64,000 bases of DNA from Lytechinus pictus. Its lineage: Eukaryota. The notes under the pieces are model-generated. The model ran no database searches and was not told where the DNA came from. It saw only the letters and a list, made by a program, of their open reading frames with translations. Positions 2,081 to 30,567 of this stretch are shown here, in pieces. The stretch is from contig NC_087250.1 of the NCBI RefSeq assembly GCF_037042905.1, forward strand, positions 18,354,001-18,418,000, written 5' to 3'. A program made the position numbers and the translations under genes. Position 1 is the stretch's first letter; every line of letters begins with the position of its first letter.

Positions 2081-2472
2081 TAGGCGGTGCTGCACCATCC
2101 CGAGTTTGCTCAACCTCGAGATTTTAGCCCGATCGGCCCTCTTCGTGATCAATCTCAAGATTCAAGAAACCCCGTCTCCACCATCCAGAAGAGCGATTCC
2201 CGCTCGAGCGAGGCAACAGGCCCGAAATTCCGAGCATGCGCACTTTCGGATCTTGGAGTTTCAACGGCGCGCGCTTTTGAATAACTTCCCGCGATAGGCA
2301 ATCAATGTACATACTCCTTTCACTGGCAGGCTTTCGCCGAATTCGACCGGTGTTATGCAACAATCCTCTCGCTCGGCCGCGCTCAGCGAGTGAAGAAGTG
2401 ATGTATTCTTCGTTAAATGATGGTTTTAATGTCATGGCGGAGAAGGAGGCAACGCTCACATTTTGCGAAGTG

Positions 2473-3386: not shown

Positions 3387-6300
3387 TTAAGAAAGTTTAT
3401 GAAATGATTAATTATAAAAAAGAATGTATTATATATAAAAAAAAAAAATTCAATCAAATATTTTTTTTATGTAATTATAATTTGAATGTCATATTTACTT
3501 ATATTATTTAGATGTATCCTTGAACTTTTTGACTGAAAAACCAAATTTGACTGTATTTTTATCATATTCGTGTATACAATTATAGATAACTATCGATTAA
3601 AGGTTTATTAATTTGCAGCCAGAGGAAATGATTTGCAATTTTCGTTTCATGTCAAAAGCGCCACCTTTTTTTAATAGACTTACAGACAAATGTAAGAGTA
3701 CCAAAGCGATGACGTCAGTTGCCGTGGTGTCATGACGGCCTGGTTCTAAACAAATGAACCCGCCAAATGAAGCGTGTGTTTCTCATAGAAGAAAATGGCT
3801 GCTATCGGAATTTGATCGCTTATAACCTATTTTTCAGACGAGCCAACTTTCATATACAAATGTTTATTTCCAATTCGTCTAATGCCAATTCGTCCAATTG
3901 CCTACTCGTCCACTCACCACATGGTGTACTTTCATTTAATCTAATGGAATGCCATCTAATAACCTGCAGTTGGTCTAATAGCCATTTAGTCCCGCTTTTA
4001 GTCCATATACCATTAGGTCTAATTGTGTTAAATTTTGCTAAATGAATGAAAATGAAATGGATATTAGACCAACTGGTCATGTTGATGGACGGAATGGCAG
4101 TAGACTAAATGAAAGTAGACCATGTGGCGAGTGGACAAGTTAGCAGTAGACGAATTGGCAATCGTCAGCTGCGACTCTGTTGACAACCAGCCCGCCATGA
4201 TACCATGGCAACTGACGTCACACTTCGGGACTCTACACTAATCTACTTAAAGGGGAACCTCACCCTGACAATAAACTGGTCTAAATCAATAGCCAAAAAT
4301 GGGGTAAAGTTTTTGATGGAAAATCAATCCAAGGATTAGAGTTGTGAAATTTTCTTTAAATAAAGAGAATTTTGGTCTGGTATTCGGCAACTCTAATGAC
4401 GGCCTTTCAGAATATGCACCCCCCATAAAAAAAAAAATATCTACATTTAACCCAAAGTTAGGTTTATGCCGGTTCATGTAACTCCAGCTAACACGATGAG
4501 CACGGATTGACACGTGAAAAAATACTTGGAATGAAAGCGTGTGCCCCTTTGGGAAGTATTATACATTAATGCTCTTCTGCATTGAGTGGTCAATGAGCAA
4601 AAGGAGTTACAAAGCGTTAAAATGACTTATGTATAGTGATTGTGCTATCATATTATCATGGTAGTCTGTCCCACGGATAATCGAGAATGAAAATATAAAG
4701 TTATGATATAGAAAAACATGTAACTTGTCTCTAATACCGATTGAAATTAAGAATATAGAACAATAAGAGAGGAAAAACTATAGGAAATAAGGGGGATGTT
4801 TTTAATCGATTGTAATCTTTAATTAATAATAGATTATATCTAATGCAGTATCTTTTTATTTCTTTCATTACGTAGTATTAACAAAGAGTCCAAAACGACA
4901 GTATGATGAAGGTTAATATAAATTTAAGTACAATTTATCAAATTTGTGTCCATTTTTGCGGAAAAGACAATTAAATATCGATATTTTGCTCTTTATGAAG
5001 TTTTACTTTATCATAAACTTGTTTATTTTTTTCCTTCATAATTATATACATAAAAAATTTACTATTGAAACAAGTATTACTGATAGAATATAAAAGTTTA
5101 AAAAATTTTGATAAGGGAATATTCTTTCATTCTCCCTTTAAAGGTAAATTCCAGTTTTGGTAAGGATCTCAAAATGACTTTTTACATAATCCAATCTAAT
5201 GACCACCCAAGTGTCTGTTTGTATGAATAAAAAATATGTGCCAAAGGATTCTGGAAGAAATTGTGTAATTGCTGAGAAATAAGCAAAATAATCGCGGATT
5301 CGGGCACTTCCGTCGGGTCTTTATTCCAGCAATAATAATATAGGCGGTGCTGCACCATCCCGAGTTTGCTCAACCTCGAGATTTTAGCCCGATCGGCCCT
5401 CTTCGTGATCAATCTCAAGATTCAAGAAACCCCGTCTCCACCATCCAGAAGAGCGATTCCCGCTCGAGCGAGGCAACAGGCCCGAAATTCCGAGCATGCG
5501 CACTTTCGGATCTTGGAGTTTCAACGGCGCGCGCTTTTGAATAACTTCCCGCGATAGGCAATCAATGTACATACTCCTTTCACTGGCAGGCTTTCGCCGA
5601 ATTCGACCGGTGTTATGCAACAATCCTCTCGCTCGGCCGCGCTCAGCGAGTGAAGAAGTGATGTATTCTTCGTTAAATGATGGTTTTAATGTCATGGCGG
5701 AGAAGGAGGCAACGCTCACATTTTGCGAAGTGGGTTAACAAACGAACAATCACAATAAGTGGAATCTGTACAAAGACGAGCAATGCGTATAATCAACCCA
5801 CAATTATCGTATACTGAGGCACTCAAAGAATTAAACTTAGAATTGTTATTCGACCGCAGGAAAATCATGTGTGAAAAGCAATTCCTCCAATTGTAAAAGT
5901 TAGATCATATCTTAAATAACCTCCTTCCATCAAAGAAAGAGTATAAGTATGATTTTAGGAACAGAAAACAATTTCCCTTGCCAACGTGTACAAACAGAGT
6001 TTTATCCCCTGGTGTCTGTACAACCTTCAATAACAAGAATAGTCTCTAGCGCATTAGACAATGAGTTTGTTTATTACCCAGTTGAAAGGATCGAGCAGTC
6101 TCTTGATGTTATACATACATTTTTATATTTAAATATTGCGTATTCCCAGATTTGCTATCATGTTAAGTCTGTATACTTGAAAGTGATACAATGTGTAATA
6201 TCTTCCAGGTTCATTTTTTATGCTCCCTTCCCCTTTTCCTCCTCCTCCTCTCTCTCTCTCTCCTTCTTTTCTTTCTTTCTTTCCTCCTTTCTTCTCCTTT

Positions 6301-8063: not shown

Positions 8064-11000
8064 TAGTCGATTTGACATTTTCCGAACCTAGAAATTTTCT
8101 TTCTGATGAAGTTTTTTTCTTGATTCGTGTTCCTATGGGGTCCTAGAACAAATTCAGCTTGGTTGCCCAAAGTTGCCGTTTGGGCAATTTCGCTAATTTG
8201 CATAAATCCAAAATGGCCGCCAGATGCCATCTTGAAAACCTAACTTTTGAACCCCTTTCCACAAAATGATGAGTAATGACTCGTTTTAGGGGTTTAGAGA
8301 TGTGTAGAACCGATTTCTGGAATCGTTTTCGCAATATAAGGTCATCTTCAGGTCAAATCCAAGATGGCCGCCAGATGCCATCTTGAAAAATTAAAGTTGA
8401 ACCCCTTGCCCCAGAATGATGAGTAATACCTTTGTTTAGGGTTTTTTGGGTGTGTAGAATCCATTTATGCTGTCTATTTTGCTATATAATGTCATCTTCA
8501 GGTCAAATCCAAGATGGCCGCCATATAACGCCATCTTGAAAAATCAATTTTTTAACCCTTTGCCCCAGAATCCTGAATAATAACTCTTTCATGAGTCATT
8601 TGGTATGTTGATTCAATTTATGCTGTAATTTTGCCTAAAAGGATAATCTTCAGATCAAATCCATGATGGCCGCCAACAGCGATCTTGAAAAAAATTACTT
8701 TCCGAGGCTTATGCATGTAAGAGCTAATGTAAAGGGATTTCAGTAAGAATACCCATTTCTTGTATTCTCAATTTTTAGTATAAGGGGAAGTCACATCTGA
8801 GATGTCAGTTTTCGACATTAACTGCTCACCTTAGAATGAATCCTCTTTAGGTTTGGGCTATGATCCATTTCGCGTGCATATTTATTGTTTTTAATGTCCA
8901 TCCATACTTTTGTACTGAAGAGGCTTTAGAGTCTTATTTGAATTTGAAAGTGTTTTCTCAATATTTTTTTCTAAATCAATGTGTCCAATGATTGGTAGGC
9001 ATCAGTTCCCCTTTTAATAAAACACGATGGTGTAGCGCTAGGTCTTACAATTTCGAGAGTGACTGTAGAGCTCCACCCTAGAGTGGCAGTATCTATAGCA
9101 AATGTGTACAGATGAAGGAGGATGGCGCTGAGACATGTTTAGATAGAAATGCTGCCCTAGCCTTCCTCCTAGGTCTTTGGTCTGCCAATTTAGCATACCG
9201 ATTATTTTCTGACGTCTTGACCCCTTTACTTATACGTAGCTCTCCATAGAATGGCGACTATCATCTACATCTTCACAGGTGTTCTTGTCTATGCCGGCAA
9301 GTTTTATGTCACATTTGCAGGTGTCTCTATAACGGAGGTGTGATCTACCGATGGGGGTGAGACCAATCACACAGCTCACCTTACCTTGGCGACCTTACCT
9401 TGGCGAATCCAAGAAAGGATTCGCCAAGGTTTCATGCGGCGAACATGTCCCAACCACTTGAGGTGACTTTGACTATAAGGAGCGAGAATAAGCTGGGGAT
9501 GCCAGCACTTACACTGAAGGGCGTCTGTATTTTTCACTTTGTCCTGCCCTTTAATGTGCATGATACGTCCGAGGTAGCTGACATGGAAGGTGTTTAGCCG
9601 CTTTTCTTGGTCGGCGTACGTTTTCAAGGACTTACTTCCGTACAGGAGCTTGGCCATGACTGACAGAATTTACTATTCCGGTGCTTATATACTTGTCCAG
9701 TGAAAGGGAGCTACATGTATGTAGTCGATCCAAGGTAGGTGAGGAGTCCACCACAAACAGACGAGTGCGTGCTGTTGATATAGATATCTGGAGGACAGTC
9801 AGTCTTGAGTCGATCAGGATTTCTGTCTCACAGGCTGATGGGTGATCCAAACTCCTTACATGCACAGGACAGGCAGCTGTTATGTATGACTAGGTCTTGT
9901 ACTCTCACCTCTTGAGAGGCAGGGGCGACATCGTTTCCGTACAACATTTCACGAATGAGATCCATCCTGACCATGGAACAGTCTTGGGGGAGCCTATCTT
10001 CTGCAGGAGGCTAAATAGTGCACTCCTGCTGACCAAGTCAATGGCTCTTGTCAGGAGGAAAAGTCCAATGATAATTATAAAGAAAGTTAATAAGTTAACT
10101 AATTTTTTGAAAAAATACGGAGTGATCACTTTTTATTTCAAATAATACTTTAAAGTCCTTTCACTGGAAAAGTATGGTTGGACAGAAATAAAAAAAGGAT
10201 TAGAACTCCTGAAATCATAGCCAAAGCCTTGAATGGTTTCATTCTAAAGTAAGCGGTTAATGACGAAATCTATCAACCATCTGATCATCTTAGACGTGAC
10301 TTGACCTCGAACTAAAAATGGAGTGATTAAAAGAAATGAATCATTCTCACTGAAATCCCCTTACATGAGCTCCCATACATAATAGTAACCTTATTAGGGA
10401 GAGTACTTCTTCAAGGTTCGATAGTCTCGGGAAATATATATTTTTTCTTAATATGGCGTTTAGCGGCCATGTTTGATTATTTTGACCTGGAGATGATGAT
10501 CATGATATATTGTAAAATTATTTAGAGAAATGGAATCAACATACCAAATAACTCGCGAAAAGAGGGACAAAAACGTGAGAATTAATAAAAGAAATGAGTA
10601 TTCTCATACTGAAATCCCTTTACATAAGCTCTTACACTTATAAGCCACGGAAAGTAATTTTTCAAGATGGCGGTAGGCGGCCATATTGGATTTGATCTGA
10701 AGATTATCCTTTATGCAAAATTACAGCATGAATTGAATCAAACATACCAAATGACTCACGAATAGAGTTATTATTCATGATTCTGGGGCAAATGGTTCAA
10801 AAGTTGATATTTCAAGATGGCGTCATATGGCGGCCATCTTGGATTTGACCCGAAGATAACATTATATTGCAAAATAGAAAGCAGAAATGGATTCTACACA
10901 CCCCAAAACCCCTAAACAGAGGTATTACTCGTCATTCTGGGGCAAGGGGATCAAAAGTCAATTTTTCAAGATGGCATCTGGCGCCATCTTGGATTTGACC

Positions 11001-11301
11001 TGAAGATGACCTTATATTGCAAAAATGGTTCCAAAAATCGGTTCTACACACATCTAAACCCCTAAAACGAGTCATTACTCATCATTTTGTGGAAAGGGGT
11101 TCAAAAGTTAGGTTTTCAAGATGGCATCTGGCGGCCATTTTGGATTTATGCAAATTAGCAAAATTGCCCAAACGGCAACTTTGGGCAACCAAGCTGAATT
11201 TGTTCTAGGACCCCATAGGAACACGAATCAAGAAAAAAACTTCATCGGAAAGAACATTTCTAGGGTGGTGTATTGAGCCTATAGGACTGTCAAATCGACT
11301 A
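8064..11301. mobile_element. 3238-bp non-autonomous TIR DNA transposon (TAGTC...GACTA termini, 3-bp TSD; Academ-like)
   Basis: Perfect 14-bp TIR tagtcgatttgaca/tgtcaaatcgacta and ~700-bp imperfect inverted arms with 150-bp subrepeats. TSD AGA (8061-8063/11302-11304); empty site acaataAGAgagg in copies 1, 2 and 4. Confidence 0.9.
9200..10065 (-). mobile_element. Degenerate RTE-clade LINE RT fragment inside the 8064-11301 element
   Basis: Minus-strand peptides IDLVSRSALFSLLQKIGSP (KAFD region), IREMLYGND (decayed YADD) and LLYGSKS..YADQEKRLNTFH...LKWLGHVRRM. Frameshifted. Confidence 0.8.
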
Positions 11302-13067
11302 AGAGAGGAAAAACTATAGGAAATAAGGGGGATGTTTTTAATCGATTGTAATCTTTAATTAATAATAGATTATATCTAATGCAGTATCTTTTTATTTCTT
11401 TCATTACGTAGTATTAACAAAGAGTCCAAAACGACAGTATGATGAAGGTTAATATAAATTTAAGTACAATTTATCAAATTTGTGTCCATTTTTGCGGAAA
11501 AGACAATTAAATATCGATATTTTGCTCTTTATGAAGTTTTACTTTATCATAAACTTGTTTATTTTTTTCCTTCATAATTATATACAATAAAAAATTTACT
11601 ATTGAAACAAGTATTACTGATAGAAAATAAAAGTTTAAAAAATTTTGATAAGGGAAGATTCTTTCATTCTCCCTTTAAAGGTAAATTCCAGTTTTGGTAA
11701 GGATCTCAAAATGACTTTTTACATAATCCAATCTAATGACCACCCAAGTGTCTGTTTGTATGAATAAAAAATATGTGCCAAAGGATTCTGGAAGAAATTG
11801 TGTAATTGCTGAGAAATAAGCAAAATAAGCGCGGATTCGGGCACTTCCGTCGGGTCTTTATTCCAGCAATAATAATATAGGCGGTGCTGCACCATCCCGA
11901 GTTTGCTCAACCTCGAGATTTTAGCCCGATCGGCCCTCTTCGTGATCAATCTCAAGATTCAAGAAACCCCGTCTCCACCATCCAGAAGAGCGATTCCCGC
12001 TCGAGCGTAGTCTAGTTCTAGACGATATTAAACGAATCTATTTGCACCGCGATATACGTTCTATTCCGTGCGTACGCCCAGCCGAGTGTGCGCGCAAAAC
12101 CGAGAACCTGTACTCCGAGAAATATTAAACGAATCTATTTGCACCGCGATATACGTTCTATTCCGTGCGTACGCCCAGCCGAGTGTGCGCGCAAAACCGA
12201 GAACCTGTACTCCGAGAAAATATCGTCTAGAACAGTTGCTCAGCGGTGACGTCACTCCCTCAGATTTTTGAGGGAAAGTCGTTAAAAGTGGACACGCCTC
12301 CCGTTCAGCCACTAGTCTTTGTTAACAGCAAGGAAGATTACTGGGTTGAGAAATATGGTGTGATCTACCGATGAAATGAATATCAATTACCTAAAAAGGG
12401 ACTTTTTGTTATAAATAATTGATAAAAGAAATCAAATTAAACACACAAAAACATAAAAAATGAATCGTATCGTATATGTTTCCCCTGATACCTACAACAT
12501 TGGTTATAAGCGTAGACTATCGTATGGCATACATAATCAATCGGATCGCACAAAGCAGCACAACATAAGCCATAGACTTGTGTACAGTACCGTGCTGTTG
12601 TATCAGGGAGACTCCCAATTCCCTGGTTGTATTGTGTATTGTATACAGCGCGCGGTTTTCAAATTCATTTTCTTGCGATCTTCAAAGTCGTTATTTCCAA
12701 CTGTTTAGACATATGCATGATGGAATCTCTGACAGCATGACGTTCATTTCCCGTCGCCATCACACCATATATGAAAAAACAAACGAAGATAAGTGATCTA
12801 GACCTCAATTTGTATGCACTAGCTGATTTGGTAAACACGCAAGAAACTGAATTTATTATATAGAATTAGGTTTATTCATTATTTTCACTTCAAGAACAAA
12901 AAACAGTTGAATTGACAACTGATTTAGTCCATTAGATATTCTTTGCTACATCTTATCTCATTAGAAGGGAGACATATCATTCACACTTGTATGAAAAAAT
13001 GAAATAATTCTGATTCCATGTAATAACACAAGAAACAGGATAGTGGGGATGTGAAATCTTCAACCCA

Positions 13068-13387
13068 CATGGGCGGAAATCCCAGAGGGGACAGGGGGAC
13101 GTGTCCCCCTTGAAAAATAGTAGGGGGACACAATATCAAATGTCCCCCTACTATTTTGGTCTTTCATGGAGAAAAATACATCACTTCACAATAGAAATAA
13201 TACATGTATTTTGGACTAAATGACCTTATATTTTGGGTGAAAACCCTTTTTTGTGGGGGGGGGGGGAGGTTGTCAAATTTTGTTAGGGTTAAAATGTCCT
13301 TACATTTAGGGTGATAACCTTTTTTTTGTTTGTCAAATTTTACAGGCCCGCGGTACCCCTACATTTGAGGACAGATTTCCGCCCATG
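13068..13387. mobile_element. hAT-like MITE (320 bp)
   Basis: TIR catgggcggaaatc/gatttccgcccatg; 8-bp TSD TCAACCCA (13060-13067, 13388-13395). Confidence 0.88.
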
Positions 13388-14225
13388 TCAACCCACCTAT
13401 TAAATATATCAATGACGACATGCATATCACCATTTTCATAAAATATTGCTAAACTTTAGAATTAAATAACTTAACTATTTGTTATCAGATTTTCATAAAA
13501 TGTATTTAATTCGAAAAAATGTATTTAAAGTATACACACAAAGAAAATTCACGAAAGTGATGATTATAGACAAATTATATATGAATGGAAAGGTCTTGTC
13601 TTTTTATACACAAATATGTCACTAAAAAGTCTTATCGATGTCGTGGAAATGCAAGAAATGAAATTATTAGAGACCATTCTAAGCCCCCCAGCCGCCCCCC
13701 AGACCGACAGTTCACGCAGTGAAAACAGTCGAGAATAATGACGTCACACAATAATCGAGCTCATCATCCCTCTGTGCATAATACACTGAATCACCTTACT
13801 GACCTCTTCAATATCTTCCGAATTTACCGTTTTCTTCATGTAATGTGACATCCGAATTCTGTTTTCGACAACTTCAGACTATAAGGGAACCAGAACTGTG
13901 TTATTTTGCCCGTTTTTTATTGAATTGTGAACTGGAAAGATCGATTTTGTCCACTCGACAGTCTTCGTTGTGTTGCTCTACTAACTATTGAAAAACTCCA
14001 AGCTGCACGGTCCCATTCACTTGCTCCCGATGCATGTTGCAGGCTACGCTGTTTGATCCAGTCAAAAGTCAAGGTAAGCATGTTTGGAAACTGTACTTGT
14101 TCTGACGATGCATTCAGGTCAGATGACAGATACAGATCTGATATAAGTTTAGAATCATGCATTTTGGCATAACTACTATTAAAATTAAAAAGTTTTTATT
14201 TTAGAAATAATGTTTTTGTACAATT

Positions 14226-14833
14226 CCACCCAAGGCAAGGGTTCATTACATGCCACGCACAGAAAAATCAAGCCATAGAAGTCGTGTGTTGTGGACCCAA
14301 GAAGTGAGATCCCAGACGCCTCCAGGCTAAGCACGCGCGACCCACTAGTTAGAAATCCACTGCCAAACGCGGTTCGTGGTGCGGGGTTAGTATACTTAAT
14401 ACGTGTGAGTGGCACAATTCCAGCAGATTTTTTCTTCAGATTTCTAAAACTGGTCAGGACTCAGGCAGGCAATTAAATTATTTAGGAGCACTGAGTGGTA
14501 TGGACCATGGCTGAAAATCTGCTGTTTCAGAGGAATGTTTAAGTTTTTATTATACACAGAATTATATCACCATGATGCCGATGTCATGAAGCCAGACAAA
14601 TTTTCAGCAGTGATTGATTCCTGGCCAAAATCACTCACACGTATTGCGAGGTTAGTATTAGTATACTACTAGTACGTATTGCGAGGTTAGTATTAGTATA
14701 CTAACCACGAACCGCGTTTGGCAGTGGATTTCTAACTAGTGGGTCGCGCGTGCTGGGATCTCACTTCTTGGGTCCACGACTTCTATTGCTTGAATTTTCT
14801 GTGCGCGGCGGCATGTAATGAACCCTTGGGTGG
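14226..14833. mobile_element. Foldback/MITE-like element with ~170-bp inverted arms
   Basis: gggttcattacatgcc...ccactgccaaacgcggttcgtggt pairs with accacgaaccgcgtttggcagtgg...ggcatgtaatgaaccc. No clear TSD. Confidence 0.65.
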
Positions 14834-14941
14834 GCCAAAATTAGAGTCTGGTGTTTCTTTCTGATTAGAGTGTTGCTGCATATATGTATGCGTAATGCCT
14901 TCAACAATGAAGATAAATGCAATCTTTGTAATGACACAGAG

Positions 14942-15132
14942 ACTCAGAGAGCACCGTACCTCAAGTGATGTTCGTGTAGTCTCCACTTCACTACTGGAGT
15001 ACTGCTACAGCCTACACTACGCTACACACTTACCCGGGTAGGTGTGGCGTACATGTACGGTAGTGTAGCGGTAGTGAAGTGGAGTGGGGCCTACACAAAC
15101 ATCACTTGAGGTAGAGCACCAGTGTTCTGAGT
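14942..15132. repeat. ~190-bp imperfect hairpin (probable small MITE)
   Basis: tacctcaagtgatgttcgtgtag pairs with ctacacaaacatcacttgaggta, centred on tacccgggta. Confidence 0.55.
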
Positions 15133-17859
15133 GGAACTTTTCAGGTGTCTAAACCTACTATCATTTGTTGTTGACCGGGAATTACATGCCACCGCACGTC
15201 ATCAATCATCACGATAATTAAATTCATACTTTGATTTGATTATTTAAACTATTTCTTTTTTTCTCTCTTCTACACACAGATCTGCACAATTGCTAACTCT
15301 GGTGACTTCTGGTCTCTGCTTGCTACCTCAATCTGGGAGATTCCATCATGTCCTTTTACTATGATTTGGATATAGCCATTTTTTTCTTCACTCTTTCCAG
15401 GACCTACGGTTTGCAAGTTGTGGAATGATAATGATACAAAAGAAAAAATTTCTTTATCAATCTTGGAAACAATTTTGAGCACAGTTTTGGAGAGAACTAA
15501 GAAATTTTACTCGGACAGGAATACAGCTTGTCAAAAATAATAACACACAATTTAAAACGAAAGAACAATTTTAATGTTACTAGGGCATTTTGCGAGAAAT
15601 GTTATACTCAATCACACGTCCCAAATCAAGGGAAAGTCCTTTGATTAAACATGTAGTTGAATTGCGATTGCAACTCGACCTTATTACGCTTGAATTTGAA
15701 TTTAAGACTTACGCTTGATTTGCAATTGAACATAAGTTTCTTGCAGTGCCCCATAATTATGTTTTGTTATCAGATATTTAACGTGCTGATTTTTCTCGAA
15801 AGGTATAATATATTTGTCCTTTTAAACGGTATTTGAATATGGGTACGCCTTTTATTTGTTTTCCACAATATTTATTGCATGTATGAACAGAAGTGAAATA
15901 TTTATTGTGAAGCACTGTGAATGTTGTGTGATGGTTCATCATCAGACTGAAAGCCTGGTGGATGTGAGGAAGTGGCCTGGATGAAAGAAAAGTGAACATG
16001 TGTCCAATTACTGATTTGCATATTCTAAGACAATTTTGTTTCTGGATAAATTTTGCTATGCATTCCCTACATTAAAAGTAAAGGAGAAGTCCACGCAATC
16101 AAAAATTCATTTGAATTTAAAGAAAAATAACAAGATATTGCAGGAAATTTCATAAAAACTTTGATTCAAATTTATATAATTACTATTTTAACAGTTCCGT
16201 AAATATAACCTATTGTGATCAGATGAAGAGTTTCCTATCGTCAAATCTGCAAAGAATAAAAAACAAAATGCCACAAAAAATAGAAACGAATGTGATGTGA
16301 GTGACAACTCTAATTTGCATATCATTGTTTTGTGTATATGACTGTTTTGAGTAAAAACAACAAGGGAAATCACTCTATTCAAATAATTTTTAGTTGATGT
16401 GGACTTGACTTTTAACTCTACCCCTCCCATCCCAAATAAGAGTAGAAATAATCTAATCAAGAACTTGAAAATCAAAAGCAGCAATTAAGAAGCAAGATTT
16501 GATAAATACAGGTCTGAATAGAATTTCACAAGAAAATAAAAAGAGAAAAAAAAGATGGGTAGGGACGGGGAAGGAATTAAAAAAAAATACCCAGAAAAAA
16601 AAAATCCGAGTTTCGAACTAGGGTCCTCGCACATGACAAAACAATGGCCAACGCATTTGGCCACAGACCATCGCCCTAACAGGAAGGCATTTTTAAGATA
16701 TATGAAAGAAAGTCCGCTCGCCGCTGTTTCCTAATAATGCTTCGGCAATTCAACTGCAATTTCAGTCATTTCGCGATGGATATTGCCGTGTTTTTTTTGT
16801 GATTCCTGACTTTGCTACTTAATAAAATTTCATAATTTTTGTTCAGTCATAAAGAATAATGTCTATGCTTTATATTGACTATAACATTAATGTGACGCAA
16901 GTGTGATTTCTACGTGAAAATATGCTTTGTTTATTCACCTATATTTCTTGAAAAAAAAAAAAAATTCTAAGCTAAATATCGGTCACCAAAATACGTTAAA
17001 TGTGCATTTTTTTTCACTGTTCAGTAAATTCAAACTTTTATCTATATAACAAGACCAATCTTAAGAGGAATAAACAATTCTAAGAGCAAAAAACGCTGAT
17101 TGGAAAGATCGTCTCCAATGGGCTGCTGTCAGCTCAGCTGCTCACTGCTCATTGTGTGACGTCACTCAGCTGGAGCTCGCAAGAGGACCGGTGGAAGGCA
17201 GAAATATGGCATGAAAATAAATCATTTTTGAGAGCTGATTTCTGCAATCTCTGATCACTATTTTGAAAAGTGAAGTTATATATCTGATTAGTAATACTTC
17301 CCCTTTACAATGATGACCACATAAAGTCATTATAAAATACTTTTGATTCTTTGGATGTATACTTTAATATACATATTTTCAGCCCGAAGTACCTCCAAAA
17401 CAAGCTGTGTATCTGAATAAACATGCGTGCGCGTGTTTAGAGTTAGACCTAATATCTGGGCATTCTAAATACACTTTTTTTATTATAAAAATCACTAATG
17501 CGAGCGCGAAACGCGAGGAGAAAATATTTGATATTCCGATCTGAAAAAGGGGTGAATTTTAACACTATTTTAAGTACTGGAAAGGAAAATTCTGAAGGGG
17601 GGATGTTATTGGAATATGTAAAAGACTATGAAAACGATTTGCGATTGTCGGATGTGATAATTATGTACATTATAACATATTTAAAAATATACAGGGAGGA
17701 ACCTGATTTTCGTGGGGGTGCTGCCTATGGAAAATAATACACGCAGCACCCCCAGGAAAATTTCTGGGGATGCTTTAGTACCCCAGCACCCCGCTTCCCA
17801 GGTCCATGCTTGCCAAGTGCTAAAGAATATTCTTGCATTGATTTCATGGACGGGTTTGG

Positions 17860-18803
17860 TAGACTCAATCGCCAAAAAGGCTAATTCACGCTTGAAATTT
17901 TTGTATAGATATCAAACCTGTTTGAATATGAAGTCTAGACGTATTTTATGCTTTGCGTTAATACAATGTTTATTCGACTATGCTAATGCGGCTTGGTACG
18001 GTAGTCTGGGTGTTAATACGGATATGAAAAAGCTAAGAATAATTCAAAATAAAATTGTGAGATATATAAATGTTTTAGGACCAAGAGCACATGTCGGATA
18101 TAATAAACTTGAAAAGGCAGGATTGCTTTATGTAGATCACAGGTCACAACAATTAGTAAATACACCACGTGCATAAAATATTCTATTCGGATAAATTAGA
18201 TCATTATATAGCAAATAATTCCACCCATGTATCAAATATCCATAGGTACGATACTTGAAATAGTAATTTTAATTTCGTATTACCAAAACGTGAAGGACAT
18301 ATTGGAAACACTTTTTATTTTAATGGCATCCAATCTTGGAATGCTCTTCCTGAAAAATAAAAGCCGTTAAATTCTTTTGTCAATTTAAGAGTGCATTAAA
18401 AAATCACCTAAAACTTGAAGCTGCCCAAGAACAGCATTACCAGTAAAATAACACATTTTGTACAGTTGGTTTCTACTATTGTAGATAATGTATACATTAG
18501 GGTATGTTAAAATATAATCTTGTTTCACATATTAGGAAGATTATTGTTTGCTTCAGATGTTTGCAAATTATATGACTGATGGATATTTTTGTATGTATTT
18601 TATTTTATTTTTTCCCCCAATATTCCAGTACTTGTCGTAGTTTATATTTTTTGTTACGATATGTTAATGTTTTATACTAACTATAGGACCCCATTGGAAA
18701 TAAGCCTTTCGGCTTTCATGGGCTATCCTGTCAAGGTATTTCCTCAATTTCATTGTAATCTCCTGTGATATTCTTGACGGATAAAATCAATCAATCAATC
18801 AAT
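17860..18803 (+). mobile_element. 5'-truncated L2/Crack-type LINE (RT C-terminus, 3'UTR and (TCAA)n tail)
   Basis: ORF 17712-18176 contains KKANSRLKFLYR...LIQCLFDYANAAWY...KLRIIQNKIVRYI. 3' stem-loop region at 18686-18730 and tail ataaaatcaatcaatcaatcaat at 18781-18803. Confidence 0.82.
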
Positions 18804-19708
18804 GTTCATTTCATGGCCTGCCGACGTCGGAGTCGAGCGTAACAGCGCTCGTTTCGTATCCCTTCCGCCCTTTTCAGTATTCGGACAGTATATACCTTTT
18901 AATTTCCGGACAGCTGGCAAAACACGCGCGCGCGCTCATTATCGATACTATTGTTTTATTTTTTATGAAGTGCGACGATCGATGGAGGGGTCTTCTTTGT
19001 TTTAATTTAAATAAAGGGGTGGATGAGCTTATTAATTGTTTGCTTTTATTTAAATTATGATCTTATTGATTCAAATTATAAAGGGGGCTTCATTGTTGTT
19101 TGTTTTTATTTCATTTCTTATTGAATAAATTATTCATAGTGATTGAAATGATAAGGGGGGGGGGCTCTTTTTATTTATTATATTTTTTATTCTTAGTAAA
19201 TAATGATAAAAGGGGAGAAACATGGCTTGTTAATTCCGTATTTAAAAAAAATCTCATTCTTATAGAGATTGGATTCAATAATAGCATTGCTTTATTCTTT
19301 GTTGTTTTTTATCTTACTTTTCATTTTGTGATTAGAATGATAAAAGGATGAGGCGGGGCTTCTACGTTGTTTATTTGTTTTCTAATTTATTTTTATTTAG
19401 TGATTAAAATGGTAAAGGGGGAGGGTAGGCAGATGTTTGTTTTCTTAGATTTATATTTTTAGTGATTTAAATGGTTAATGATTTTTATTTTACTAATTAA
19501 AATGGTTGGTATAAGGGATGGTAGGCATGTGTTTTTTTTTACCGTTTTTTTTTTAAATTTTTCTTAGTGATTGAAATAAAATAAATTTATCATAATACAT
19601 ATAGTCATGTAAATTATTTCTTTTATATTTTTTTATTCTTAAAATTGCAATTAGCCAAAGTACCTGTTCCTGCTGCCCGCCTTCTATCTTATTCATTCTA
19701 CTTAGGGT

Positions 19709-20131
19709 TACGCTTCGTAATTCCGAAGGTTCTTTATTCCGAAGGTTCGTAATTCCAAATTGCCTATACCTCGATGTTCGTTAATCCGAAAACGTAAAAG
19801 GTTTCGTTAATCCGAACATTTGTGGCGTTATTCCGAATGTTCGTTTTTCCGAAGGTTGGATAATCCGAAAACGGAATAAGGTTTGCTGTTCACTAGGTTC
19901 GTTAATCCGAAAACGAAATAAGGTTAGTTGTTCCGAAGGTTCGTTAGTCGGAAAACGAAATAAGGTTCGTTAATCATTTCGTTTTCGGACTAGCGAACCT
20001 TCGGAATTACGAACCTTTCATTTTCGGATTAACGAACCTTCGGAATTACGAACCTTATTTCGTTTTTAGATTAACGAACCTTCGGAATATCCGAACCTTC
20101 GGAATAACGTAGCTTCGGAATTACGAATGTA
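19709..20131. mobile_element. MITE built of ttccgaaggttcg subrepeats in inverted arrangement
   Basis: ttcgtaattccgaag at the left end and cttcggaattacgaa at the right end; the subrepeats switch strand at ~19975. Confidence 0.75.
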
Positions 20132-21269
20132 TGCGGTATGCGTTTATAGTGTACTGCACACCTCTGTCCCTCCTGTCTCCTCCCCCTAACTTCCCCCTCT
20201 CTTCTAATATTATAAAACGTAATTTTTTCTCACATGATCCATCAGTTACGTTTTTGTCAAGTGCACAAAAATTGTTTGTATCTATTTTTAAACAAAATTA
20301 TTATTACGACTCAATATCTATTTGTTGTAATTTTGTAATGTAACTAAGATAGGGGCTTGCCTCTTGTACAAGCTTTGCTTTTTTCGGCAAGTCCCTCCGT
20401 TTTACTTTTAAATACAAATGTCATTTGAAATAACTTTATTTACTGAATTGTGTTACTTAAATCTATGATTATGTTAGATATATATTATATGTTGTCTTGC
20501 AGTATTTTCGACCTTGTTATGTTATGTTTATCATGTACAATTGTGAAACGGAAATAAATCTAATCTAATCAAATCTAATCAAATTAAATTTATATTAAAG
20601 TTATGAAGCCAAAATATTAATATACTACCACTATTTTTAATGTATGATGTAGTGAATTAATTATTTACAATACTGTTGTGGAACAAAAATGTCCATCATG
20701 CGGTAAATTTATCTCTTGTGTTTTTTTTTTCGCTAGGGTGGGGGGCATTTATGGTTTGGATTATGCCCATCCCCACTTAAACTGTATTTAATATATGTGC
20801 ATCTGCTTTTTCAGTTGATCAGTTGTTTATATCATATTTATTCTCGTTTTGAAAATGTCAGTGGACACACTTTGATTTATTATTCATTTATTCTGTAGCA
20901 ACAGGCCCCTCTCCTACTAAGAATAAAAATACTATTGTTTAAGATTATTATTGTTTGATATAAAGTTTATATATATGTTTTATTCTTGTGTATGTTACCT
21001 TATAAGTCCAGGTCGGGGAGGAAAGCCTGCGCCAGTAATTTCTTTCACAGGCAACTTGGACTTGTACTGTAAACATCCCTGTTCATTTTGTCATTGTAGC
21101 CTTGTAGGCCCTATATTCTCATGTAAACTGTTTAATTGTAAACTTTTTTTTGTTGAAATGCGGAATAAAATAATGATAAAGAAGAAGAAGAAAGAAGAAG
21201 AAAAAAGAAGAGGAAGTAGAAGATAACAAAAAAGCAGAAGAAAGGGAAATAAACTGAGACCTCCATTAA

Positions 21270-21869
21270 AGGACAAGTCCACCCCAACAAAAAGCTGATT
21301 TGAATAGAAAGAGAAAAATCAAACAAGCATAACGCTGAAAATTTCATCAAAATCGGGTGTAAAATAAGAAAGTTATGACATTTTAAAGTTTCGCTTAATT
21401 TCACAAAACAGTTATATGCACACCCTGTTCGGTATGCAAATGAGGGAACCGATGACATCACCCACTCATTATTTCTTTTGTATTTTATTACATGAAATAT
21501 TTTGATTTTCTCGTCACTGTCATGTGAAACGAAGTTTAATTCCTCCCTGAATACATGGAATTCCATTATTTTAACATTTTGTGGTTCAAGCAAGGGGGTC
21601 CTAATTGCCAAATTCGTAAAAAGGCAAAATTGTATAATTCAAAAAATAAAAAAACAAAAGAAATAGTGAGTGAGTGACATCATCGACTCTCTCATTTGCA
21701 TATCACTGGGTTGAGCATATAACTATTTTGTGAAAAATAAGCGGAACTTTAAAATGTCATAACTTTCTTATTTTACATCCGATTTTGATGAAGCTTTCAG
21801 CGTTATTCATGTTTGATTTTTCTCTTTCTGTTCAAATCAGCTTTTTGTTGGGGTGCATGGACTTGTCCT
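21270..21869. mobile_element. Kolobok-like MITE (600 bp, TTAA TSD)
   Basis: TTAA|aggacaagtcca...tggacttgtcct|TTAA with ~125-bp imperfect TIRs. Confidence 0.88.
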
Positions 21870-23308
21870 TTAATGGAGGTCTCATTTTATTCCCCTTTCT
21901 TCTGCTTTTTTGTTATCTTCTACTTCCTCTTCTTTTTTCTTCTTCGCCTTCTTCTTTTTCTTCTTCTTCAATCCTTTTCTTCTTCTTCTTTATCATTATT
22001 TTATTCGGCATTTCAACAAAAAAGGTTTACAATTAATCAGTTTACATGAGAATATAGGGCCTACAAAGCTACCATGACAAAATGAACAGGGATGTTTACA
22101 GTACAACACCAACATGTTATTTTTTTTTTGATTTTTTTTTTTTACATCTATCTCCATTTTTTCACCTATCAGGATTCTGCACAACGTCAAAGATGTATTG
22201 GTGTAAGAAATGTTTATCTTCCAGCCCTTCCCCCCTTTCCCACACTTTTATTTTTTTCTTAATTCTCTCTCCCCTACTCGTTACCTAATTCTCTTTCTTT
22301 TTCACTTTCTTCTCCTTTTCCTCTTCACCAGTCTTTTTCTTCTCAATTTCTCTTCGACCTCATCCCCCCTCTTTTATTTTTATATGCATGTCCACTCCTT
22401 GCATTTCCCTCCTTCATGCAGTATTACCTTTTTATTTCATCTTTCGACTAATCTTCCTTCTCTCTTGTCTTTTAATATTCAGCCTCCATTGCCTTTCCGT
22501 ATATAGGCCTACTCTACTCGTTTCTTTTCAATTTCTTCCATGCATATATTTTTTTTACTCCCTTGCAAATACCATGCAAGAAAGAGAAAACACGAAAATT
22601 TTCATAAAAATAAAAAAAAAATATTGGCCTGTCATGTACCGCTAGCACTAACTTTAATAGATAGCAAGAAATCCTTCCCTGACTCTGGCCGAGCTGAGCT
22701 GATATCCGTGTATTACATCAGGGAAGTGTTATTACATCAATCCCACATGCACAATGCATGAAGCTATGCACATTGCATGCACACAGCTGATAACATGTAC
22801 AAAACGTAAAACTATTACGTAATAGCTCCATGGTTGCACTGTTGTTCGGCGCGGTGATTGACAAGTAACTCATGCATATTTATGAAGCACTCGTCCGTTG
22901 ACCTTTGACCTCTGACGTCACCGCTGAGCAACTGTTCTAGACGATATTTTCTCGGAGTACAGGTTCTCGGTTTTGCGCGCACACTCGGCTGGGCGTACGC
23001 ACGGAATAGAACGTATATCGCGGTGCAAATAGATTCGTTTAATATCGTCTAGAATTTTCTCGGAGTACAGGTTCTCGGTTTTGCGCGCACACTCGGCTGG
23101 GCGTACGCACGGAATAGAACGTATATCGCGGTGCAAATAGATTCGTTTAATATCGTCTAGAACTAGACTACTCGAGCGAGGCAACAGGCCCGAAATTCCG
23201 AGCATGCGCACTTTCGGATCTTGGAGTTTCAACGGCGCGCGCTTTTGAATAACTTCCCGCGATAGGCAATCAATGTACATACTCCTTTCACTGGCAGGCT
23301 TTTATGAG

Positions 23309-25128
23309 CCCAGGACCAAAATCCAATTGAAACCAGTTGGATTTCCAACTGGTTTCAATTGGTTTCAATTGGTTTCAACTGGTTTCAATTGGTTTTAACT
23401 GGAATTTAACAATTTCCAGTTGAAACCAATTGAAACCAGTTGGGCAACTGGAAATCCTAACTGGAACCAGTTGGGTAACTGGAAATGACTTCCAATTGGG
23501 AATGATTTCTAACTGGAACCAGTTGAGTAACTGGAAATCCCAACTGGAACCAGTTGGGCAACTGGAAATCCTAACTGGAACCAGTTGGGTAACTGGAAAT
23601 GACTTCCAATTGGAAATGATTTCTTACTGGAACCAGTTGAGTAACTGGAAATCCCAACTGGAACCAGTTGGGCAACTGGAAATCCTAACTGGAACCAGTT
23701 GGGTAACTGGAAATGACTTCCAATTGGAAATGATTTCTAACTGGAACCAGTTGGGCAACTGGAAATCCTAACTGGAACCAGTTGGGTAACTGGAAATGAC
23801 TTCCAACTGGAAATGATTTCTAACTGGAACCAGTTGAGTAACTGGAAATCCCAACTGGAACCAGTTGGGCAACTGGAAATCCTAACTGGAACCAGTTGGG
23901 TAACTGGAAATGACTTCCAATTGGAAATGATTTCTTACTGGAACCAGTTGAGTAACTGGAAATCCCAACTGGAACCAGTTGGGCAACTGGAAATCCTAAC
24001 TGGAACCAGTTGGGTAACTGGAAATGACTTCCAATTGGAAATGATTTCTAACTGGAACCAGTTGGGCAACTGGAAATCCTAACTGGAACCAGTTGGGTAA
24101 CTGGAAATGACTTCCAACTGGAAATGATTTCTAACTGGAACCAGTTGGGTAACTGGAAATCCTAACTTGAACCATTCAGTTGTGTAACTGGAAATCCTAA
24201 CTGGTACCAATTGGGTAACTGAGATGACTTCTAACTGGAAAGATGGGTAACTGGAAATGAATTCTAATTGGAACCAGTTGGGTAACTGGAAATTATTTCC
24301 AATTGGTTTCCAATTGGAAATTTTCCAGTTACCCAACTGGATCCAATTGAAACCAGTTAATTTGCATATTATTTGCCAGTGTGCACAGATTAATGTTTTA
24401 TGAGATTAATCATCATTAACAATGTATCTATTTAATTCTTTACAATTTCAAGTACCACACTTTTTAAAGATTAGTATTTAGAATACTTAGCAGTGAAAAC
24501 CATGTTCATAAATGTTATAGATTATAATTAAAACAGATTAAAGGATAATTAGTACACCACTAACTGTTACCAAATTACATCAAATAAAAGTACATATATT
24601 TGAAGATCTTCCATATAAATATATATACATGAAAGTCTGTATTTTATCAATGCCCTTTACATTGGTATTAATAGACATATAACACTGCTTCTGTGTTGGC
24701 ATGAGAAATAGTTACTGCAAATGCTAATTAATTTGTAACTAATTAAGTTCGTTCCAACTGGAAGTTCCAATTGGATCCAGTTGGAAACCAATTGGTTTCA
24801 ACTGGTTCCAGTTGAAACCAGTTGCCTCCAATTGGTTTCAACTGGAACCAATTGAAACCAGTTGCCTCCAATTGGATTCAATTGGTTTTAATAGGGAAAT
24901 TGGAACAACTGGAACCAATTGACAACAATTGCCAACTGGTTCCAGTTGCCCAATTGGTTTTAACTGGAACCAATTGGCAACTGGTTTTCAATTGGTTTTT
25001 AACTGGAACCAATTGGCAACTGGTTTTCAATTGGAACCAGTTGTTCCAATTTCCCTATTGAAACCAGTTGGCCAACTGGTTTCAATTGGTTTTGCCCTAA
25101 TTGGTTTTAACTGGATTTTGGTCCTGGG
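23309..25128. mobile_element. 1820-bp CMC/EnSpm-like non-autonomous element (CCC...GGG, 2-bp TSD) nested in the left TIR of the foldback element
   Basis: TIR cccaggaccaaaatcca/tggattttggtcctggg; TSD AG (23307-23308, 25129-25130). The intact right TIR (reverse complement tatgaggcgccgaatg) shows the empty state. Confidence 0.9.
23430..24300 (+). repeat. Internal minisatellite: ~114-bp higher-order unit built from aactggaaccagtt palindromic monomers
   Basis: 38-codon periodicity visible in the spurious ORFs at 23430 and 23813. Confidence 0.85.
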
Positions 25129-25324
25129 AGGCGCCGAATGTACCAATATTATATAGAACAATTATTTGTTATATAATCATTATTTATTAAATAATAACTA
25201 TTATTTATATATAATTTACATTTTATTTGTAAATAACTACTATTATATAAAATATCATTTCTAATTATTTATATATAATTCCAAGTAATACTTCATTATT
25301 TGTAAATAATAATAGTTCGACATT

Positions 25325-25720
25325 CCATTATTTATAAATAATGATTATTTGTTTTTCATTATTTATAAATAATGATTATTTGTTTTTCATTATTTACAAA
25401 TAATGATTATTTGTTTTTCATTATTTATAAATAATGATTATTTGTTTTTCATTATTTATAAATAATGATTATTATTATTATTGTATTTACAAATAATGAT
25501 TATTTGTTTTTCATTATTTATAAATAATGATTATTTGTTTTTCATTATTTATAAATAATGATAAATGGTTTTTCATTATTTATAAATAATGATTATTTGT
25601 TTTTCATTATTTACAAATAATGATTATTTGTTTTTCATTATTTATAAATAATGATTATTTGTTTTTCATTATTTATAAATAATTTGTTGAGTTTTCCATT
25701 ATTTATAAATAATGATTATT
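25325..25720. repeat. 31-bp AT-rich tandem array (outer domain of the foldback arm; mirrored at ~28900-29320)
   Basis: Unit ttatttataaataatgattatttgtttttca, containing the 18-bp palindrome cattatttataaataatg. Confidence 0.88.
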
Positions 25721-28700
25721 TGTTAAATAATGAAAACGTCTACTTCATTATTTATAAATAATTTTTTCGAGTGCACCATTATTCTCATTATTTATAAATA
25801 ATCATTATTTAATGTTCGAGTTTTCCATTATTTATAAATAAAGATTATTTGTTAAATAATGAAATATCTACTTCATTATTTATAAATAATAATTTTGTTT
25901 CAATATCCCATTAATCATTATTTATAAACAATTTTTACAGTTTGCCATTATATACAAATAATCATTATTTATATACAAATAACCATTATTTATTAAATAA
26001 TGCCATTATTTATTAAATAATGCCATTATTTATTAAATAATGGAAAACTCGCTATAACATGCAAATGTGGGACCGCCCATGATATGAATATTCATGATGC
26101 GATTTCCTTTTTCGTGATTTTTCTTCACAAATTTTTGTCCATTTCCTCTTCATAATGACATTTCTTGAAGCAATTTTCTAGGGATATGGTCTGATTGTAA
26201 TATTCTTCATTTTCTATATAACTTCGTCTTCGTAGAAATATCAAAAAGTGTAATTTTATACGATTTTTCCTACAGTTCACAATCCCCATAGGCGCGCGTG
26301 TACGGTAGGGACAACCGGTGAATCGACGGAGTGCTCTTCATCGAAATACTATACGTTGGTTGGTCCCCGGAAGTGGCGGGCGGAATTTAGCCCGAATCTT
26401 AGATGGAAGTCGATCAAGTGCAGAGAGTGAAATATCAGTGTACTTGTACAGGCCCTTCTACTTTTTATAAATATTTCTTGTTGCTTTTTTTGTTAAGTTA
26501 ATTATTCCTGGTGTAGAGATAAGTTTCAGTTCTAATAATGCACTTCAAATACATTTTGGAGTGTCTGTTTGAGGCGTTTGGGGCGATTTCACCCTGGCCC
26601 CAAAATGCTCGCAACGACAATACGGGGGCATGATGACCCCTAAATTTTTAAAAACTTATTTTTCTATTGAAAATTATCACAAAATTCACCAAAAGTGTGC
26701 ACGAAAGCCTTCGTATTTCACTTTTAAAACTCCAAAAAGTGCCCAAATGACAAGCTTGGTCGCTTCGCTGTGTCGTTTTCAACTTGAGAAAGTTTACGCG
26801 TCTGCTTCCCCCCCCCCCCCCTCCTCCGAAAGAAATTATGTATACGGCCATGCTCTAAAGAGCCTGGCACATTGATTTATGTATACTTCATTTTCATTAT
26901 TTTTATCTCATTATCATCATGGCCTTACGCATAATTTTTTCCGGGGGGGGGGGGGGGTGGGGGGAGCAGGACGCGCGTAAACTTTCTCATAAAAATCTTG
27001 AAAAAGCGAAGCGACCAAGCTTGTCATTTGAGCTTGGTCGCGTCGCTGTCTCGCTTTCAAGATTTTTTTGAGAAACTTTACGCGCGTCCTAGCTGCTCCC
27101 CCCCCCCCCCCCGGTAAAAATTCTGTGTAAGGCCATGATGATAATGTGATAAAAATAATGAAAATGAAAAGTACATATAAATCAATGTGCCATATGCTCT
27201 TTTGAGCATGGCCGTTCACAGAATTTATTTCGGGGGGTGGGGGCAGACGCGCGTAAACGTTCTCAAGTTGAAAGCGAGACAGCGAAGCGACCAAGCTTGT
27301 CATTTGGGCTTGGTCCCGTGGCTGTCTTGCTTTCAAGATTTTTTTGAGAAAGTTTACGCGCGTCATGCTCCGGCCCCCCTGGAAAAAATTCTGCGTAAGG
27401 CCATGTTGATAATGAGATAAAAATAATGAAAATGAAAGTATACATAAATCAATGTGCCAGGCTCTCATTATCAACATGGCCTTCCGCATAATTTTTTCCA
27501 GGGGGGCCGGGGCCGGAGCATGACGCGCGTAAAGTTTCTCAAAAAAATCTTGAAAGCAAGACAGCCACGGGACCAAGCCCAAATGACAAGCTTGGTCGCT
27601 TCGCTTTTTCAAGATTTTTATGAGAAAGTTTACGCGCGTCCTGCTCCCCCCACCCCCCCCCCCCCGGAAAAAATTATGCGTAAGGCCATGATGATAATGA
27701 GATAAAAATAATGAAAATGAAGTATACATAAATCAATGTGCCAGGCTCTTTAGAGCATGGCCGTATACATAATTTCTTTCGGAGGAGGGGGGGGAAGCAG
27801 ACGCGTAAACTTTCTCAAGTTGAAAGCGACACAGCGAAGCGACCAAGCTTGTCATTTGGGCACTTTTTGGAGTTTTAAAAGTGAAATACGAAGGCTTTCG
27901 TGCACACTTTTGGTGAATTTTGTGATAATTTTCAATAGAAAAATAAGTTTTTAAAAATTTAGGGGTCATCATATCATGCCCCCGTATTGTCGTTGCGAGC
28001 ATTTTGGGGCCAGGGTGAAATCGCCCCAAACGCCTCAAACAGACACTCCAAAATGTATTTGAAGTGCATTATTAGAACTGAAACTTATCTCTACACCAGG
28101 AAAAATTAACTTAACAAAAAAAGCAACAAGAAATATTTATAAAAAGTAGAAGGGCCTGTACAAGTACACTGATATTTCACTCTCTCAGCTCATATGCACT
28201 TGATCGACTTCCATCGAGGATTCGGGCTAAATTCCGCCCGCCACTTCCGGGGACCAACCAACGTAGTATTTCGATGAAGAGCACTCCGTCGATTCACCGG
28301 TTGTCCCTACCGTACACGCGCGCCTATGGGGATTGTGAACTGTAGGAAAAATCGTATAAAATTACACTTTTTGATATTTCTACGAAGACGAAGTTATATA
28401 GAAAATGAAGAATATTACAATCAGACCATATCCCTAGAAAATTGCTTCAAGAAATGTCATTATGAAGAGGAAATGGACAAAAATTTGTGAAGAAAAATCA
28501 CGAAAAAGGAAATCGCATCATGAATATTCATATCATGGGCGGTCCCACATTTGCATGTTATAGCGAGTTTTCCATTATTTAATAAATAATGGCATTATTT
28601 AATAAATAATGGCATTATTTAATAAATAATGGTTATTTGTATATAAATAATGATTATTTGTATATAATGGCAAACTGTAAAAATTGTTTATAAATAATGA

Positions 28701-30567
28701 TTAATGGGATATTGAAACAAAATTATTATTTATAAATAATGAAGTAGATATTTCATTATTTAACAAATAATCTTTATTTATAAATAATGGAAAACTCGAA
28801 CATTAAATAATGATTATTTATAAATAATGAGAATAATGGTGCACTCGAAAAAATTATTTATAAATAATGAAGTAGACGTTTTCATTATTTAACAAATAAT
28901 CATTATTTATAAATAATGGAAAACTCAACAAATTATTTATAAATAATGAAAAACAAATAATCATTATTTATAAATAATGAAAAACAAATAATCATTATTT
29001 GTAAATAATGAAAAACAAATAATCATTATTTATAAATAATGAAAAACCAATTATCATTATTTATAAATAATGAAAGACAAATAATCATTATTTATAAATA
29101 ATGAAAAACAAATAATCATTATTTGTAAATAATGAAAAACAAATAATCATTATTTATAAATAATGAAAAACAAATAATCATTATTTATAAATAATGAAAA
29201 ACAAATAATCATTATTTGTAAATAATGAAAAACAAATAATCATTATTTATAAATAATGAAAAACAAATAATCATTATTTATAAATAATGAAAAACAAATA
29301 ATCATTATTTATAAATAATGGAATGTCGAACTATTATTATTTACAAATAATGAAGTATTACTTGGAATTATATATAAATAATTAGAAATGATATTTTATA
29401 TAATAGTAGTTATTTACAAATAAAATGTAAATTATATATAAATAATAGTTATTATTTAATAAATAATGATTATATAACAAATAATTGTTCTATATAATAT
29501 TGGTACATTCGGCGCCTCATAGGCTTTCGCCGAATTCGACCGGTGTTATGCAACAATCCTCTCGCTCGGCCGCGCTCAGCGAGTGAAGAAGTGATGTATT
29601 CTTCGTTAAATGATGGTTTTAATGTCATGGCGGAGAAGGAGGCAACGCTCACATTTTGCGAAGTGGGTTAACAAACGAACAATCACAATAAGTGGAATCT
29701 GTACAAAGACGAGCAATGCGTATAATCAACCCACAATTATCGTATACTGAGGCACTCAAAGAATTAAACTTAGAATTGTTATTCGACCGCAGGAAAATCA
29801 TGTGTGAAAAGCAATTCCTCCAATTGTAAAAGTTAGATCATATCTTAAATAACCTCCTTCCATCAAAGAAAGAGTATAAGTATGATTTTAGGAACAGAAA
29901 ACAATTTCCCTTGCCAACGTGTAAAACAAAGAGGTACAAACAGAGTTTTATCCCCTGGTGTCTGTACAACCTTCAATACAATGAGTTTGTTTATTACCCA
30001 GTTGAAAGGATCGAGCAGTCTCTTGATGTTATACATACATTTTTATATTTAAATATTGCGTATTCCCAGATTTGCTATCATGTTAAGTCTGTATACTTGA
30101 AAGTGATACAATGTGTAATATCTTCCAGGTTCATTTTTTATGCTCCCTTCCCCTTTTCCTCCTCCTCCTCTCTCTCTCTCTCCTTCTTTTCTTTCTTTCT
30201 TTCCTCCTTTCTTCTCCTTTTTGACCCCTTACCCTTTTTCATACTCTCCAACCCCTTTCTACTTCCTTTTTTTTCAACTTCCTTTTTTCTCTTCTTTTTC
30301 TTCTTCTGCTTCTTCATATTCATCTTCTTTTTCTTCTCCTTTCTTTTTTCTTTCTCATATTCCTTATTACTTTCTCGTCATCTCGTCCTCCTTCCCATCC
30401 TATCCTAATTTATTCTGAATGGTCTGGTTTGACCATTTATAAAGAAATGCGGTTCAGGTTCAGGTATAACATTCTACCCTTTCAAATTTGTTAAATGCAA
30501 TATTTTTTAATATTACATACATGCACAGATAAATAATTTTTATTTATATAAATATTTAGGCTATATT

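Follow-up and report, generated by a model that had tools for sequence, protein, structure and literature searches.

What kind of transposable element can give rise to a near-perfect palindrome several kilobases long, and to which superfamily does it belong? The question is raised by a 64,000-nt stretch of Lytechinus pictus DNA (contig NC_087250.1, positions 18,354,001 to 18,418,000, forward strand; hereafter the window), in which positions 23303-29521 had been described, from the letters alone, as a 4.4-kb palindromic foldback element with a 6-bp target-site duplication (TSD), TATGAG termini, and a possible place in an unclassified family. On the basis of its ends and its TSD, 23303-29521 is in all probability a non-autonomous DNA transposon of foldback architecture and of the IS3EU/GingerRoot type, an assignment that we regard as provisional.

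The boundaries of the insertion could be established within the window itself, because its first 32 kb are a tandem repeat and therefore hold empty copies of the target. The repeat (positions 1-32400) has a 3,260-bp unit, with unit starts at 2203, 5463, and 23171, and its copies differ by 0.35-2.2% in substitutions. When the flanks of the element were joined and one GGCTTT was removed, 166 of 166 nt were identical to two other repeat units, and excision of 23303-29521 together with 6 bp recreated a 120-bp junction that is present at the empty sites at 2275 and 5535. The target-site features are the following.

2329-2334, forward strand: empty target site 1, GGCTTT present once, in a paralogous 3,260-bp unit (rebuilt junction 166/166 nt)
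5589-5594, forward strand: empty target site 2 (rebuilt junction 166/166 nt)
23297-23302, forward strand: left TSD copy, GGCTTT, from the empty-site reconstruction
29522-29527, forward strand: right TSD copy, GGCTTT, from the empty-site reconstruction

With the boundaries placed at 23303 and 29521, a 6-bp duplication alone rebuilds the site, and duplications of 5 or 7 bp fail. Among the boundary pairs that fit the empty sites, the 6-bp pair is the only one with an inverted end (272 nt vs 0-2 nt). A 7-bp TSD, although formally possible, was rejected, as it puts the last A of the element in the flank, needs asymmetric ends, and disagrees with contig ends elsewhere. We conclude that the TSD at this insertion is the 6-bp GGCTTT, proven by two empty sites. 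Over 2,577 bases, 9 substitutions separate the filled unit from the adjacent empty one, a divergence that points to a recent insertion unless the tandem array has been homogenized.

The span 23303-29521 measures 6,219 bp instead of the predicted 4.4 kb, since it includes a second, nested element at 23309-25128, which the original prediction had not described; after subtraction of the nested insert and one AG, 4,397 bp of palindromic element are left. The parts of the element, from left to right, are listed below; the terminal inverted repeats (TIRs) make up the two arms.

23303-23308, forward strand: first 6 bases of the left TIR, TATGAG; after excision of the insert and one AG, it matches the intact right end in reverse complement
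23309-25128, unstranded: nested 1,820-bp non-coding element of CACTA/TRC type, with CCC..GGG ends, a 16-bp terminal match, and the 2-bp TSD AG
25131-25290, forward strand: remainder of the left terminal domain, AT-rich and the same as the right over 160 nt
25291-26045, forward strand: left outer domain, with 14 copies of a 31-bp unit and degenerate copies after them
26046-26743, forward strand: left inner unique domain, without a protein family match
26744-27030, forward strand: module U1, self-folding, 287 bp, mirroring U4
27031-27306, reverse strand: module U2, an extra 276-bp module and the main asymmetry of the element; its removal extends the palindrome to the centre
27307-27579, unstranded: central module U3, an inner stem with a 45-nt loop at 27418-27462 and a TCT microhomology at the turn-back
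27580-29521, reverse strand: right arm, consisting of U4, the inner domain, a 15-copy 31-bp array (28891-29354), and the terminal domain ending in CTCATA at 29521

Alignment of 25131-27030 with the reverse complement of 27580-29515 gave 1,880 matches, 10 substitutions, and 7 gap events, so that the arms diverge by 10 substitutions in 1,890 aligned bases, a small difference that speaks for a young element; with the nested insert taken out, the outermost 272 nt form a perfect inversion. A 16-mer adjoining the reported terminus has exactly two copies in the window, inverted relative to each other, at 25129 and 29517 (chance mean 0.16). Each arm has an AT-rich terminal domain of 160 nt that is the same on the left and right, followed by an outer domain with a 31-bp array (25292-25724, 14 copies; 28891-29354, 15 copies) and an inner unique domain of about 700 bp (~26046-26740 on the left). 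The palindrome with ~1.9-kb arms, the 6-bp TSD with TATGAG termini, and the division of each arm into a tandem outer and a unique inner domain are thus all as originally predicted. The 31-bp unit contains a perfect 20-bp palindromic core, which has 15 occurrences in the element and none in the rest of the window. A GC-containing tip of ~20 bp is confined to the two ends of the element; its absence from the interior means that the 31-bp unit was not copied from it, and that origin for the arrays was ruled out. The CpG observed/expected ratio is at least 0.97 in the domains of the outer element. No further copies of the outer element, the nested element, or the central module were found elsewhere in the window.

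The nested element sits after base 6 of the outer left end. The last 2 bases of 23303-23308 double as the left copy of its 2-bp TSD, the second AG lies at 25129-25130, and excision of the insert with one AG makes the left end equal to the right end. Another 16-mer is present in two inverted copies in the window, at 23309 and 25128, which are the ends of the nested element; the subterminal regions of this element carry 10-bp, 31-bp, and 114-bp repeats. Its CCC ends and 2-bp TSD are those of animal CACTA/TRC elements, represented by SmTRC1 with a CCC core at its ends and a 2-bp TSD (PMC1636069); it differs from SmTRC1 in that this copy is non-coding and consists largely of short repeats. The nested element is also nearly free of CpG (observed/expected 0.02), which may simply mirror its repeat unit.

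The centre had been predicted to consist of smaller palindromic modules at 26870-27750. Self-folding modules are indeed present there, but the extent required correction: the centre covers 26744-27858 and is built from modules U1, U2, U3, and U4, which measure 275-287 bp and recur with a period of 276 bp. In comparison with 200 shuffles each, the folding of module U1 gave z = -15.75 and that of the central module z = -26.2. U4 is the mirror of U1 with 1 substitution and 3 gaps. U2 is without a mirror partner, and when its 276 bp were deleted in silico the palindrome ran on to the 45-nt loop. At the turn-back junction the sequence departs from the module consensus after TCT, a 3-nt microhomology shared with the mirrored template. 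U1 differs from U2 by 20 substitutions, compared with the single substitution between U1 and U4, which suggests either that the mirror event postdates the module duplication or that the mirror is kept corrected.

Two lines of evidence on the content and distribution of the element were available, a search for coding capacity and a comparison with contigs from other sequencing runs. The Pfam scan took in 33 open reading frames (ORFs), 29 within the element region and 4 elsewhere in the window; the 29 were drawn from 61 ORFs of at least 40 aa, of which the other 32 lie in the tandem arrays, in the flanks, among the short frames of the centre, or, for most of them in the right arm, mirror frames of the left. 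No family reached the cut-off in any of the 33 scanned ORFs, 29 of the 61 in the element region included, and the 271-aa frame at 26917-27732 simply runs through the module repeats. Rfam gave 0 matches at the gathering score in the window, the empty sites included.

The inner domain was detected in 18 of the 21 listed sequencing runs, which come from 8 studies, and in 7 with at least half of its words. Contigs were compared for four of the 21 (X1, X2, X4, and X15). The terminal 166 bp (29356-29521) are present in X1 and X2 with 0 differences. Among the loose ends listed, those lying behind 29521 or 29522 numbered 1 in X2, 2 + 1 in X15, and 11 + 5 in X4, and none lay behind 29520; X15 has one additional variant end at 29515, one base short, and in X4 a single diverged piece breaks off at 29520. 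The contigs of the other runs thus leave the element at 29521 or within a few bases of it, which favors a TSD of 6 bp over one of 7. Within each of the two X4 groups the flanks differ, with consensus agreements of only 0.44 and 0.56. The same end therefore stands at many other sites, and the element belongs to a dispersed family. The flank in X2 matches window positions 14016-14044 exactly and so marks another site targeted by the family, which is empty in this window. No left and right flanks could be paired for a family TSD among the listed loose ends of the four runs, and no contig in these runs bridges the insertion junction, a result that is uninformative on absence. The target itself is repetitive (23171-23302 and 29522-29620), and contigs over 29524-29611 are far deeper than those of the element flanks in X15 and X4. 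The terminal 18-mer had 0 matches in viral contigs. Its three matches in metagenome contigs were all discarded as chance: two extend over 18-19 letters only, and contig L002, with 20 matching letters, is gene-dense and without a TIR partner.

In complete IS3EU families TA..TA termini are invariable and 6-bp TSDs are the usual case, and IS3EU is joined with GingerRoot in a single lineage (PMC10045372); for GingerRoot, 72 of 77 elements were reported to have TA..TA ends and 72 to have a 6-bp TSD, with TIRs of 100-150 bp (PMC6839031). The element at 23303-29521 begins and ends with TATGAG..CTCATA, its last base being backed by loose ends in three of the four runs, and it has inverted termini and, at this insertion, a 6-bp TSD. 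The TATG start also resembles that of fungal IS3EU elements, which have TAYGG..CCRTA ends and a 6-bp TSD (PMC12730594); TATGA and TAYGG agree at 4 of 5 positions. Occurrence in marine invertebrates is a further likeness. The combination of TA..TA ends with a 6-bp TSD, for which the original prediction saw no obvious match among the common superfamilies, is therefore a published one (PMC10045372, PMC6839031). As the element lacks a transposase, its membership in IS3EU/GingerRoot rests on the ends and the TSD.

Several observations weigh against this assignment or set the element apart from the group. An autonomous partner sharing these ends was not found, no genome-wide search for one having been made. 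The TIRs of the element, at ~2 kb, are nearly the whole element and far longer than the 100-150 bp of GingerRoot, and its arms hold tandem arrays and palindromic modules. The Repbase rule for non-autonomous elements, by which positions 1-11 should be alike with 1 mismatch allowed (PMC4455052), fails against the one fungal consensus compared, IS3EU-1_PGra, with which the element has 4 leading bases in common before falling out of register. No word starting with TATGA is present in the fungal consensus supplement, both comparisons being with fungal rather than animal ends. The TSD length was measured at a single insertion, and hAT6 elements likewise make 6-bp TSDs. In addition, the perfect inner stem could stem from hairpin-templated correction within one module and not from a single turn-back.

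The architecture was compared with that of known foldback elements. Drosophila FB, Tetris, and Galileo, and sea urchin TU as cited in PMC4079207, share with this element long modular TIRs and a non-coding middle; the element differs from them in having a 6-bp TSD, vs 8-10 bp for Tetris, and in being nearly without a middle domain. The TIRs of foldbacks consist of a flanking domain, an outer domain of tandem repeats, and a unique inner domain around a non-coding middle (PMC4079207), and the element agrees with this both in its long TIRs, each divided into a tandem outer and a unique inner part, and in its non-coding middle, in support of the originally proposed likeness to TU and FB. The same paper assigns most foldbacks to Mutator, with exceptions, and gives the Tetris TSDs; Galileo belongs to the P superfamily. 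A Mutator/MuDR foldback (Tetris, FB, or TU-like) fails on the TSD, 6 bp against the 8-10 bp stated there. Polinton/Maverick was rejected because its ends start with AG (PMC6839031) and those of the element with TA. Dada, which targets multicopy small-RNA genes, failed on its target, with 0 Rfam matches in the window and at the empty sites. We conclude that the element is probably a foldback-built structural variant of a known superfamily and not a new type of element. No description of a foldback-built IS3EU or GingerRoot element was found in the literature search, which had Repbase and subscription papers outside it, where non-autonomous families of this kind may well be recorded; the sole paper among those listed with both "IS3EU" and "foldback" (PMC8268682) uses them, in its available part, in unrelated places, and the available part of PMC5753468 holds nothing on IS3EU foldbacks.

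The original prediction had raised the possibility of an unclassified family, in which another or unknown transposase would produce TA ends and a 6-bp stagger by chance. A 2-base end signature plus a TSD length is a thin classifier, and the search for DNA relatives yielded nothing in viral contigs and only the three chance matches in metagenomes; a named superfamily, however, already has exactly TA..TA and 6 bp. We consider such a family unlikely, and the earlier suggestion is not supported, given that the IS3EU/GingerRoot signature fits and hAT6 is another named group with 6-bp TSDs.

The main rival is a non-autonomous element of the hAT6 group, in which the arrays would be subterminal repeats of the hAT type. 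Ends of hAT elements can start with TA, and the neighboring element at 12008-23170 starts with TAG and has an 8-bp TSD, but the hAT end consensus is YAR, with a purine at position 3, where 23303-29521 has T. The group is defined by 6-bp TSDs and lies within the animal hAT lineage (Kapitonov and Jurka 2007, as cited in PMC12730594), a likeness to the element. Typical hAT TIRs, in contrast, are short (10-25 bp; PMC3942097), whereas those of the element are ~2 kb, and a hAT6 origin seems unlikely. Finally, although long palindromes are prone to artefacts and the insertion junction is spanned by no contig in the four runs, a fold-back arising in the assembly or in a read would yield mirrored flanks and an exact copy of one arm, and neither is seen: the flanks are unmirrored and colinear with the two empty sites, the TSD is exact, and the arms are set apart by substitutions and indels, by one array unit, by one 276-bp module, and by the nested transposon, so that an artefact, already doubted in the original prediction from arm-specific indels, can be dismissed with near certainty.

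For an element of the IS3EU/GingerRoot type, a DDE transposase of that lineage would act in trans on the two identical tips. By analogy with integrase-like DDE enzymes, it would bind the ~20-bp GC-containing tip, nick after the terminal TA, and join the two ends to the target strands with a 6-bp stagger. The palindrome-cored 31-bp arrays may provide extra, putative binding sites, as do the arrays reported as additional binding sites in Galileo (PMC4079207). The palindrome itself could have formed when synthesis or repair turned back within the module array at the 3-nt microhomology and copied one end of the parent element, after which the left side would have gained a module or the right side lost one. 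The CACTA-type insertion would have come last, because recognition should fail once the tip is interrupted after 6 bp, and it probably immobilized this copy.

More broadly, it is conceivable, though we hold it rather doubtful, that IS3EU/GingerRoot transposases move full palindromes carrying two copies of one end that originate from replication turn-back, with a hint of spread across species. Runs with two different organism labels have the same 166-bp end, and a third label has an end that is identical but shorter, the labels being coded and perhaps standing for the same or sister species. If true, this would represent an undescribed foldback class of IS3EU/GingerRoot, and a single young family could cross species. 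The ends in such a class need not differ, unlike those of bacterial IS3, which follows an asymmetric copy-out route. As a young, gene-less, near-perfect palindrome with a proven 6-bp TSD, the element would extend the foldback architecture to a probable further superfamily beyond Mutator and P, and it defines cis-acting ends that are usable in a transposition assay.

The tandem repeat was hit by three independent DNA-transposon insertions and one nested insertion, all within its third and fourth units; TSDs of 2, 3, 6, and 8 bp are represented among the four, three of which have empty sites alongside. The window is thus a clean natural record of four DNA-transposon insertions and by itself offers no new mechanism. 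The first of the neighbors, at 8064-11301, is a 3,238-bp element with TAG..CTA ends and a 3-bp TSD (AGA) proven by three empty sites; its inverted arms of ~680 bp with 150-bp arrays make it a second foldback-type element, which is presumably Academ-like, by its signature only. The second, at 12008-23170, is an 11,163-bp element with TAG..CTA ends and an 8-bp TSD (CTCGAGCG) proven by two empty sites, and is presumably hAT-like, again by its signature. It has inverted ends of ~260 bp with 97/108-bp repeats, hosts other small inverted-repeat elements, and contains a CpG-rich stretch near 13700-14100 with a splice-donor-like motif at its end. Frames at 17685-18176 and 29830-29949, with no Pfam family at the cut-off, resemble the 3' end of a reverse transcriptase of a non-long-terminal-repeat retrotransposon. 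On the reverse strand, a 532-codon open frame at 59995-61593, without a Pfam family, probably represents a large host-gene exon. A long inverted pair (~620 bp, 91%) lies at 51306-56563, and its arms carry 160-bp arrays.

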